DNA from: Escherichia coli | GTDB taxonomy: Bacteria; Pseudomonadota; Gammaproteobacteria; Enterobacterales; Enterobacteriaceae | Assembly: GCF_044324785.1 (NCBI RefSeq) | Contig: NZ_CP172127.1 | DNA: 64,000 nt | Reading direction: 5' to 3' (one strand) | Part shown: positions 23,896 through 25,269 of the stretch, one piece after another | Numbering within the stretch: position 1 is the first letter of the stretch | How the letters are laid out: the number at the start of each line of letters is the position of its first letter | The notes under the pieces: generated by a model | The model's input: the letters and a program-made list of their open reading frames with translations, nothing else | Told to the model about the DNA's origin: nothing | The model's database searches: none | Translations under genes and position numbers: made by a program

Positions 23896-24114
23896 TTACC
23901 ATTCCTCGCGCAGCTTACGCTGGTATTCGACACCATCTTCCTCACTCCCTTGCCAGATGCCAAAAGCACTGGCTCTTGCTGTTTGCGATTGATTTACCAG
24001 GTATTGATCTACCGCTTCCCGTAATAGCTCCGCACGAGGAAGATTACGCTGCACCTCGAGATCATCAAGTTGCTTAAACAACTCATTCGATAAATCGAGT
24101 AAAATTCTGCCCAT
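23896..24114 (-). CDS. yiiF: Small ribbon-helix-helix (CopG/MetJ-like) protein YiiF
   Basis: ORF 23896..24138; start set at [39 protein letters not shown] (72 aa). Confidence 0.8.
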
Positions 24115-24356
24115 ATCTATACCTGCCAGAGAGTTCATAAATATCTCGCCAATATCATTTTTGAATCTATGGAGAGAAAAGTACCCTTGCCGAATCTTTA
24201 AAGAAAGCTCATTTACGCATCATTTTTTATTTTTGCGAGGCGTTTTCCAGATATGATGTAACAGTTGCAGTTATTATAAGTTCAAGTAAAACAGCCTTGT
24301 ATTAATACCAGAATAAGGGCATCTGTTTTTTTATATTCAAGAATGAAAAATTTTTG

Positions 24357-24575
24357 TCATTCCTTATGCTCCTTACACTGATCATCAACACCAACTACCT
24401 CCCCCTTTTGCCTGCCTCCCTTTGCTTTACGCACCGGGAATTGCTGACGTTCCAGATATTGCTCTACCGCTTCGCGTAAAATTGCAGATCGTGAAACCTT
24501 ACGCCAGCCCCTAAGCTTGTTCAGCCGTTTAATTGCCTCTTCTGATAAATGAAGAAAAACCGTATTCATCGCCAT
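24357..24575 (-). CDS. yiiE: Small ribbon-helix-helix (CopG/MetJ-like) protein YiiE, paralog of YiiF
   Basis: ORF 24357..24602; start set at MAMNTVFLHLSEEAIKRLNKLRGWRKVSRSAILREAVEQYL (72 aa); shares REAV(D/E)QYL core with YiiF. Confidence 0.8.
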   Translation of the reverse strand: MAMNTVFLHLSEEAIKRLNKLRGWRKVSRSAILREAVEQYLERQQFPVRKAKGGRQKGEVVGVDDQCKEHKE

Positions 24576-25269
24576 TACCACCACCTTACATATATTACTC
24601 ATTAATGTATGTGCGAAAATTACGCCGAAAAATCATTTAAAAAAAGCGGATTTTTGCATGTCGTTTTGTTTTTGCGAGACGTTTTCCAGAAATAATAAGA
24701 ACGTTGCAGTTGTTTCATTTGTTAATCAAAAATGGTTTGGTTATCGCCCAGGATGAGATATGGGTGCTATAAATATATTATATTCAGGGATATTTATTTT
24801 TTGATTGGGTCTTCATTTGCATAATCTGAATGGTGTACCCGAAAAACGTCAGCATCCTAACAGCACCAGGATTTAAGGTGAAATTAATCATCCATCACAG
24901 ACCGTTCAATGCTGCCACCAACCGGTCTTTACTTGCTCATCGTTATAATTTTGTTGGTAACAGTTCGGGAAACAAGGAATTCCTTCCGGAACACCCCGGT
25001 ATCATCCGATAGCATTGACGTCAATCATCAGCGCGACGGTGAGTTTTTTTAATCGCATCATAGGATGGTAACGTTAAGCACGATTACGGGTCATAGTAAA
25101 ACTCCTGAGCAGGCGGCACTATGCCGCTTTCACAGGAGTTCTGAATGCTGGTGCTTTCTGTATGGCTTCGCCATGCCCCTCGCGGCTAAGTGCCTGCGCA
25201 CATCTCTCTTTGTATGTCATTTTTGCAATGCATTGGCCGAATTCTGGTAATTCTAATGAGTTTTACTCT

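Follow-up and report, generated by a model that had tools for sequence, protein, structure and literature searches.

Several toxin-antitoxin (TA) systems resemble the locus described here. The omega-epsilon-zeta and paaR-paaA-parE systems are three-gene TA loci with a separate ribbon-helix-helix (RHH) regulator. In Escherichia coli, hicAB is transcribed from a distal promoter, P1, which has a CRP-S site and depends on Sxy, and from a proximal promoter, P2, which is repressed by the antitoxin HicB; overproduction of Sxy in the same organism induces chpSB, higBA and hokD (PMC6957337, PMC11951105). In Haemophilus influenzae, toxTA (HI0660/HI0659) is a competence TA operon under CRP-S control; most strains have a deleted or truncated toxin gene, and 17 of 181 possess the full operon (PMC6957337). 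Finally, a VapBC complex of Klebsiella pneumoniae is available as PDB 7BY2 and 7BY3 (Kang et al. 2020, J Med Chem, as listed in ref. 49 of PMC11117207). We analysed here a stretch of 64,000 nucleotides of E. coli chromosome (contig NZ_CP172127.1 of assembly GCF_044324785.1, hereafter the window), of which the 1.6 kb queried were 100% identical to strain N3. It carries two small RHH genes, yiiE and yiiF, each preceded by a copy of the same short sequence block. We propose that this locus is probably a decayed chromosomal vapBC with a duplicated antitoxin gene, and that the repeat is a duplicated Sxy/CRP input and not an autoregulatory operator.

Among the closest relatives is the VapBC of K. 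pneumoniae. YiiF is the orthologue of its RHH chain, is encoded at the same position adjoining fdhE, keeps the GxWQ.. tail and has the same upstream block; the K. pneumoniae locus has, in addition, a proximal TGATATAC-N5-GTATAT. The window differs from it in that the toxin gene is a pseudogene stump, that the proximal palindrome and the Shine-Dalgarno sequence of yiiF are decayed, and that it has gained, upstream, a further antitoxin paralogue without the tail, yiiE.

As for hicAB, the likeness is in the promoter architecture, a CRP-S site upstream of an antitoxin-controlled proximal promoter, which in our case would read CRP-S site, about 70 nt, -10 hexamer and operator-bearing proximal promoter. 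However, the families are PIN and RHH here versus HicA and HicB, the antitoxin gene comes first here, the promoters here are predicted, and both sites here match the motif perfectly, whereas the region upstream of hicA has no comparable match. With toxTA the locus shares the loss of the toxin and the retention of the antitoxin, intact vapC being present in 57 of 5426 complete E. coli genomes (about 1%). Unlike it, toxTA has a ParE/RelE-family toxin and a helix-turn-helix (HTH) antitoxin, with the toxin gene first, and its Sxy/CRP regulation has been shown by RNA-seq, whereas a motif match is what we have here. As in omega-epsilon-zeta and paaR-paaA-parE, an extra RHH gene without toxin-binding tail stands before the TA pair in vapC-positive Escherichia, which read yiiE-vapB-vapC. 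Unlike in those loci, yiiE comes with a complete promoter region of its own and arose recently as a paralogue of the antitoxin, and a regulation of vapBC by YiiE is putative.

A duplicated antitoxin gene and a toxin remnant

Both genes are on the minus strand, with a 637-aa orphan open reading frame (ORF) upstream and the convergent fdhE downstream. The genes and repeats of the locus are the following.

23751..23897, minus strand: pseudogene remnant of vapC (PIN toxin), directly 3' of yiiF and before fdhE; found by tblastn, translations checked
23896..24114, minus strand: yiiF, a 72-aa RHH protein, by orthology an orphan VapB-type antitoxin (the RefSeq form has 80 aa and starts at 24138); ORF and annotation
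24197..24275, minus strand: copy 1 of the 79-nt repeat, upstream of yiiF, which holds a CRP-S-type site and the Escherichia-specific AACTGCAAC box; repeat search and alignments
24357..24575, minus strand: yiiE, a 72-aa RHH protein, Escherichia-specific tandem antitoxin paralogue with a diverged C-terminal tail; Pfam and spread of homologues
24636..24714, minus strand: copy 2 of the 79-nt repeat, upstream of yiiE; repeat search and alignments

The original prediction, made from the nucleotide sequence, described two tandem paralogous genes with a REAV(D/E)QYL core and near-identical segments upstream, and both descriptions proved correct. YiiE and YiiF are 39% identical by BLASTP (E 2e-11), with LREAV(D/E)QYL common to both, and global alignment gives two whole head-to-tail units of about 450 bp, 23896-24356 and 24357-24810. 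A repeat search of the window and self-alignment found the two upstream copies to be 76% identical over 79 nt. The two strings that had been quoted as near-identical are present, with 30 of 38 positions matching by eye, but their true positions are 24235..24272 and 24674..24712, 2-3 nt away from those first reported. When the units are compared with each other, the far upstream part is 51% identical, the leader 54%, the RHH codons 61% and the C-terminal codons 58%, and the value rises to 95% in a core, TCTGGAAAACGNCTCGCAAAAA on the gene strand, which is far better kept than the adjoining coding sequence. The two copies of this core agree at 21 of 22 positions and are its only occurrences in the 64 kb, where shuffled sequences lead one to expect 0. 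Given a background identity of about 57%, a 21/22 match would arise by chance with a probability of about 0.03 over the whole unit; chance is nevertheless untenable because the block is conserved across genera.

An extension (AACTGCAAC...) is found upstream of both yiiE and yiiF in Escherichia and is missing in other genera, and homologues of YiiE are restricted to Escherichia and Shigella. Since the two upstream regions share this Escherichia-specific extension and YiiE is confined to the genus, the alignments show yiiE to derive from a tandem duplication of the whole antitoxin unit, 5' region and gene together, within Escherichia.

That both proteins are RHH proteins of antitoxin or repressor type, as first suggested, is supported by a Pfam match and by homologous solved structures. 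YiiE matches RHH_1 with E 1e-11 and 44.6 bits (cut-off 20.5); YiiF scores 17.8-18.3 bits, under the cut-off, and its orthologues have precomputed PF01402 matches. YiiF is 93% identical to Shigella YiiF, whose structure is solved (PDB 2K5J); with chain A of the K. pneumoniae complex 7BY2 the identity is about 75% (E 2e-26 over all 72 residues). In the AF2 monomer model of YiiE, residues 12-25 and 29-45 form helices (pLDDT about 87), the tail is disordered and residues 4-8 are modelled as helix, not strand. With this model, Foldseek ranked 2K5J, CopG and CopA_SO highest, superposing 35-38 residues at about 0.9 Å; the E values exceeded 0.09, a statistical weakness expected because the domain has only about 40 residues.

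No toxin partner had been evident in the original prediction, and a search for toxin ORFs changed this. When the VapC proteins of Citrobacter, Salmonella, Klebsiella and E. coli were compared with the whole window by tblastn, the best matches fell after yiiF (E 3e-6 to 5e-6 and 0.001-0.05). The stretch 23811..23894 corresponds to VapC residues 2-29 and runs into an in-frame stop at 23808..23810; 23754..23807, in the same frame, corresponds to residues 102-124 less 5 codons and is closed by a stop at 23751..23753. The deletion has removed about 72 codons from the interior, and the ATG overlapping the stop codon of yiiF is out of frame with the homologous sequence. The translated matches thus show that vapC survives in the window strain only as a frameshifted, internally deleted stump. 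A VapBC module has an intact PIN gene adjacent to and overlapping the antitoxin gene, and the window has remnants of it only; judged by its gene content, the locus once belonged to the VapBC modules and is no longer a working one.

In Citrobacter, Salmonella and Klebsiella, the YiiF orthologue lies between fabY and fdhE and overlaps an intact 124-aa PIN-domain gene, and a scan of 100,044 species genomes found the same RHH and PIN pair adjoining fdhE in about 35 further Enterobacteriaceae genomes, as well as diverged VapB homologues with PIN partners in Sphingomonadales. The PIN protein of K. pneumoniae is chain B of 7BY2 ("Ribonuclease VapC"), chain A being the YiiF orthologue. Within Escherichia, one clade has an intact yiiE-yiiF-vapC; the intact vapC of E. 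coli, carried for example by strain 2016C-3878 (NZ_CP029747), is labelled VapC toxin by PGAP, and the remaining complete genomes have partial deletions. Protein alignment and gene order thus show yiiF to be the orthologue of the RHH antitoxin VapB that adjoins fdhE throughout Enterobacteriaceae, and an orphan VapB here. The internal deletion junction of vapC is identical in E. coli K-12 and in the window, which indicates that the toxin was inactivated before these lineages split.

Two further observations concern the borders of this region. In K-12, the gap between yiiF and fdhE (L085:3971-4299) has REP-type palindromic elements in place of the N-terminal vapC remnant. In the window, a 16-nt inverted repeat, CTGACGTTTTCCGGGT at 23718-23733 and ACCCGAAAAACGTCAG at 24837-24852 (94% complementary), brackets the region from yiiE to the vapC remnant, and one of its arms is within the fdhE terminator region.

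Apparently different fates of YiiE and YiiF

YiiF retains the putative toxin-binding tail motif GxWQ.. that is conserved in all orthologues of our alignment. The tail of YiiE, in the same alignment, is GGRQKGEVVGVDDQCKEHKE, and the aromatic and leucine residues of the putative toxin-binding tail are gone. Moreover, the predicted outward, DNA-facing residues of the beta-strand all differ, the strand being NTVFLHL in YiiE versus GRILLDL in the YiiF/VapB consensus.

We also compared the ratios of nonsynonymous to synonymous substitution rates (dN/dS), each estimated from at most 11 differences. Between the yiiF genes of N3 and K-12, which are both vapC-less, there are 9 nonsynonymous and 2 synonymous changes (dN/dS about 1.2), and yiiF alleles linked to an intact vapC give about 0.28. 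For yiiE the ratio is 0.14-0.28 in all comparisons, with 0 nonsynonymous changes between N3 and K-12. These counts appear to fit a drifting orphan antitoxin, yiiF, and a retained paralogue, yiiE, under purifying selection. After the duplication, yiiE would have lost the toxin-binding tail and changed its DNA-reading beta-strand together with its promoter-proximal palindrome, and it may have been kept by selection as a free-standing, neofunctionalised regulator, with the orphan yiiF left to drift.

Natural chimeras occur in some E. coli and in Escherichia albertii, where the N-terminus of YiiE is joined to the C-terminus of YiiF at the REAV(D/E)QYL core; the E. albertii chimera precedes an intact vapC. 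They offer a ready-made domain swap between operator specificity and toxin binding.

L008:3001-3219 and L009:3001-3252: chimeric genes; proteins P0110, P0119, P0214, P0217 and P0219

The repeated block matches the CRP-S motif

The features of the distal upstream regions are the following.

24231..24252: CRP-S-type 22-bp site upstream of yiiF, plus strand TTTTGCGAGGCGTTTTCCAGAT, core TGCGA-6N-TTCCA at 24234..24249; motif match
24670..24691: CRP-S-type 22-bp site upstream of yiiE, plus strand TTTTGCGAGACGTTTTCCAGAA, core at 24673..24688; motif match
24178..24183, minus strand: predicted -10 TACTTT of a distal yiiF promoter, CRP-S centre at about -70.5
24617..24622, minus strand: predicted -10 TAATTT of a distal yiiE promoter, CRP-S centre at about -70.5

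The CRP-S motif of E. coli is T4G5C6G7A8-6N-T15T16C17C18A19 (Sinha et al. 2009, as quoted in PMC6728893). On the plus strand the block is TTTTGCGAG-N-CGTTTTCCAGA, and its two copies (TGCGAGGCGTTTTCCA and TGCGAGACGTTTTCCA) agree with the CRP-S core at 10 of 10 positions. No other match to the core occurs in the window, where 0.17 are expected. K-12 carries both sites, and the block is conserved across Enterobacteriaceae: an alignment of 20 upstream regions shows little or no variation at the ten core positions, and variation at positions 10-13 of the centre. An exact match to the motif and its phylogenetic conservation are thus what the alignments show.

Position 6 of the half-sites was also considered. 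CRP-S sites of Enterobacteriaceae never have T6 in either half-site but C6 or G6 (PMC1635313), and C6 in the strong half-site is reported to lower the affinity of CRP about 80-fold, so that Sxy is needed (PMC6728893, PMC1635313). Here, the strong half-site, TTTTGCGA, has C6 and the other (TCTGGAA, on the opposite strand) has G6. The CRP-S motif is asymmetric, is active in either orientation and works by a class I-like mechanism via CRP AR1 (PMC6728893); in H. influenzae, CRP-S sites lie near -62, -73 and -100 (PMC1635313). In our alignment of 20 upstream regions, a TAnnnT hexamer keeps its TA throughout and stands at a fixed spacing from the block; counted from the start that this hexamer predicts, the CRP-S centre would be at -70.5 for both genes. 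Measured from the start predicted by the proximal -10 in the orthologues, the CRP-S centre is at about -99.

The CRP-S motif is absent from the alphaproteobacterial vapB homologues, and Alphaproteobacteria are outside the taxa with sxy and CRP-S promoters as listed in PMC6957337. In the literature, a search that did not extend to Sinha et al. 2009 found no paper linking yiiE/yiiF (b3889/b3890) to Sxy. Published K-12 data place the sigma-S holoenzyme and SlyA/H-NS at the yiiE promoter region, and overexpression of SlyA raises yiiE 2.5-fold.

In Citrobacter, Salmonella, Klebsiella and most other genera, the intergenic region with the CRP-S site also has a LexA box of consensus type, CTGTATGnATATACAG, and a divergent Abhydrolase_3 gene starts about 20 nt away from it. 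The E. coli window has neither the hydrolase gene nor the LexA box.

L003:3815-3835, with L004 and L006 at the equivalent place: LexA box, columns 31-46 of alignment A4

The same site upstream of other TA cassettes

By a pattern scan of metagenomes and a search of a plasmid collection, we found the block before other TA cassettes. The same 22-bp site, in unrelated flanks, accompanies a RelB/ParE pair that 455 E. coli genomes carry between nrdG and cybC; the block is inverted relative to the genes and 65 nt from relB, and K-12 has the empty site. In Salmonella Senftenberg, a RelE/HTH pair between ilvA and ilvY has a site identical to the yiiE copy at 22 of 22 positions. The site is also present in a further RelE/HTH context and in a RelE-like/HTH island at the fdhE locus. 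It is found before TA cassettes in both orientations, and a discrete, orientation-independent element of 22 bp points to a transcription-factor site. We suggest, tentatively, that perfect CRP-S sites with the common centre G-N-C-G-Y-T might be a recurrent and possibly portable element of chromosomal TA cassettes across Enterobacteriaceae, although we hold this to be doubtful for now.

In Klebsiella spallanzanii, a perfect 28-bp direct repeat that contains the block flanks a 1.45-kb island, which encodes a RelE-like toxin, an HTH antitoxin and two small Cys/His-rich ORFs; Klebsiella grimontii is without the island. E. albertii and some E. coli have an island of 69% identity at this position, with a block copy on either side. 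The same CRP-S-type string, over 19 nt, also forms part of a SymE-family type I toxin gene, in whose 3' end it encodes ...AGKRLAKS..., and a RhuM-family gene follows 60 nt downstream; this may be a coincidence, or a site for the downstream gene.

L035:915-942 and 2388-2415 (K. spallanzanii), L008:1201 and 2880 (E. albertii): island repeats
L159:11526-11873, about 23 related metagenome contigs and 4 viral contigs: SymE-embedded string

Several points weigh against a duplicated Sxy/CRP input. The Sxy dependence of the block is read from its motif. The region upstream of hicAB has no CRP-S motif within 2 mismatches in our motif scan, which implies that motif quality and Sxy control are not tightly coupled. 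The distal -10 hexamers, TACTTT and TAATTT, are weak and their -35 regions poor. Among the cassettes, the site's position with respect to the best -10-like hexamer varies, from about -47.5 in nrdG-cybC to about -104 in two others and -136 in one. The central 6N is conserved among them as G-N-C-G-T/C-T, beyond what CRP-S needs; descent from one ancestral site, or some other function, could be the reason instead. The site may also act on the divergent hydrolase gene in other genera, since some metagenomic contigs without vapBC (L155, L162, L169) have it between that gene and fdhE; these contigs may have cleanly lost the TA pair, or the site may at first have been part of the hydrolase promoter. 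Finally, the dN/dS estimates have the small counts given above.

Some of these points lead to an alternative in which the block binds CRP alone, or another enterobacterial regulator, with no role of Sxy. A discrete 22-bp element with variable flanks and orientation is what any transcription-factor site would give, the conserved centre G-N-C-G-Y-T is unexplained by the CRP-S consensus, and the sigma-S holoenzyme and SlyA/H-NS are at the yiiE promoter region in K-12. However, the 10/10 match to a Sxy-dependent motif would then be a coincidence, and the C6 of the strong half-site is reported to cut CRP affinity to the point where Sxy becomes necessary (PMC6728893, PMC1635313). We therefore regard this alternative as rather unlikely.

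The block might otherwise be an att-like recombination or insertion site for small TA cassettes, its repetition reflecting cassette traffic. The perfect 28-bp duplication around the K. spallanzanii island and the absence of this island from K. grimontii, the block copies on both sides of the related island of E. albertii and some E. coli, and the presence of the block with accessory cassettes at other loci would all fit. But none of the cassettes encodes a recombinase; in the nrdG-cybC and ilvA-ilvY cassettes about 100 nt of inserted DNA separate the block from the edge of the insertion; the homology of the yiiE and yiiF units runs through and past the block; and the island has diverged no more and no less (69%) than the hydrolase gene beside it, in keeping with vertical descent and repeated loss. 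To our knowledge, the block is also unlike dif, attC and the ends of insertion sequences. On balance an att-like site is quite unlikely.

We likewise know of no convincing match of the block, compared by eye with the motifs, to PurR, MetJ, FadR, IclR/AllR, marbox, DnaA, CpxR, SlyA, dif or Tn3 ends.

Predicted proximal operators beside the start codons

Two candidate operators of the RHH proteins are found closer to the genes.

24141..24145 and 24152..24156, minus strand: two GATAT motifs, 11 nt apart, predicted YiiF/VapB operator by the start codon
24588..24612: imperfect palindrome ACATATATT-N7-AATGTATGT, predicted YiiE operator, just upstream of yiiE

In the 83 nt before vapB of 30 alphaproteobacterial homologues, GATAT/ATATC occurs 152 times, versus 3 in control windows, and the arrays, TTGACAT-GATATC-nn-GATATGATATC, overlap a TTGACA promoter. 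In enterobacterial orthologues the equivalent position is occupied by TGATATAC-N5-GTATAT, even in genera whose block is decayed. Operator-like repeats are thus found in the sequence as in a VapBC module, as GATAT(C) at the promoter beside the antitoxin start; in the window, the proximal palindrome of yiiF and its Shine-Dalgarno sequence are decayed (GATATTGGCGAGATAT). The proximal region of yiiE has no GATAT. The YiiE-type palindrome is perfect over 9 bp in the Escherichia clade locus L010, and ACATATATT/AATATATGT is before every gene with a YiiE-type N-terminus, the E. albertii chimera included. We infer that YiiE and YiiF recognise different proximal operators. Because the beta-strand and the proximal element change together and the block stays constant, the block is unlikely to be an RHH operator.

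The original prediction had taken the repeated block for a duplicated promoter/operator module, through which the proteins might regulate themselves. It is right that the repeat lies within a duplicated 5' regulatory region, but the block as operator of YiiE and YiiF, at which they would repress their own promoters, is hardly likely. RHH antitoxins do usually autoregulate, the block is at an equal distance upstream of both genes, and a loose direct repeat, GGAAAA/GCAAAA, can be seen in it by eye with about one helical turn between its parts. Nevertheless, the block is 95-135 nt from the start codons and without GATAT, whereas the operator-like motif of the VapB family is GATAT(C) by the start codon. 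It is also identical before YiiE and YiiF, in which all outward-facing beta-strand residues differ, and before cassettes of unrelated TA families with RelB-type or HTH-type antitoxins; conversely, enterobacterial VapBs with an identical beta-strand are found beside a degraded block.

The last alternative, a sigma-54 promoter for each RHH gene (TGG-N10-GC geometry, TGGAAAACGCCTCGCA), has the exact GG-N10-GC spacing and a bipartite conservation with variable centre in its favour but is highly improbable, since only 8-9 of 12 positions of TGGCAC-N5-TTGCA match, the chromatin immunoprecipitation sequencing (ChIP-seq) tables of the main text and the accessible supplements list an fdoI-internal site and none at yiiE/yiiF, the RpoN genomic SELEX paper names yiiE only in its sigma-S table, and the block occurs in both orientations relative to the downstream TA genes, which is impossible for a promoter.

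Other candidates were tried and rejected. A sigma-70 promoter inside the block was not found, with no conserved -35/-10 pair in either orientation by eye and by a position weight matrix scan. An antisense promoter is unsupported: the plus strand after the yiiF block resembles the relB promoter of nrdG-cybC, with a TATAAG at the matching distance, the yiiE copy having no TATAAG and structural support being absent. The block is not a dispersed repeat family (median of 2 copies per E. coli genome, maximum 4). It is not plasmid-borne, its enterobacterial matches in the plasmid collection being on megabase-sized, chromosome-like records or records with chromosomal genes and not on true plasmids, and it is not of phage origin, the 16 matches in viral contigs being unrelated coding sequences or single cases. 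The Salmonella "vapBC2" is not the orthologous locus, being on plasmid pSLT according to its paper. As for RNA, an Rfam scan of 23600-25300 with E up to 1 gave no family, the inter-unit spacers folded on both strands had z-scores of -0.8 to +0.4 with no structured RNA and no convincing terminator, and a simple terminator scan found none between yiiE and yiiF.

The neighbouring 637-aa ORF, at 25270..27183 on the minus strand, occupies an AT-rich stretch between yiiE and fabY. It has no match in Pfam, NCBIfam or PHROGs, its homologues are in Escherichia and Shigella only, and K-12 does not have it; in the RefSeq annotation of strain N3, it is split into a "transposase" and a pseudogene.

Discussion

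The genes yiiE and yiiF and their RHH fold are already known, and there is no new kind of system here. The repeat is largely explained by known elements, namely a decayed vapBC, a duplicated antitoxin gene and a duplicated CRP-S site, and the CRP-S sites at yiiE/yiiF may already be listed in the 2009 paper on the Sxy regulon.

In the model that we favour, a decayed vapBC with a duplicated Sxy/CRP input, each gene would have two layers of control. The proximal layer would be a promoter overlapped by the protein's own operator, GATAT for YiiF or the ACATATATT palindrome for YiiE, and self-repressed. The distal layer would be the 22-bp CRP-S block, at which cAMP-CRP, aided by Sxy (TfoX), would turn on a class I promoter some 70 bp downstream. 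The two promoters together would follow the logic described for hicAB and toxTA.

YiiE and YiiF are still uncharacterised "y-gene" regulators of K-12. They are now given an origin, as the antitoxin and the duplicated antitoxin of a vapBC module, and a candidate input signal, Sxy with cAMP-CRP. They would be a further case in the unexplained link between competence regulation and TA systems, next to hicAB and toxTA. If perfect CRP-S sites do recur across TA cassettes, YiiE would be an antitoxin paralogue recruited as a free-standing transcription factor of the Sxy regulon, and TA modules and regulators derived from them would form a whole layer of this "competence" regulon. The presence of the same 22-bp site before unrelated accessory TA cassettes suggests that the link between competence and TA systems is general in enteric bacteria.

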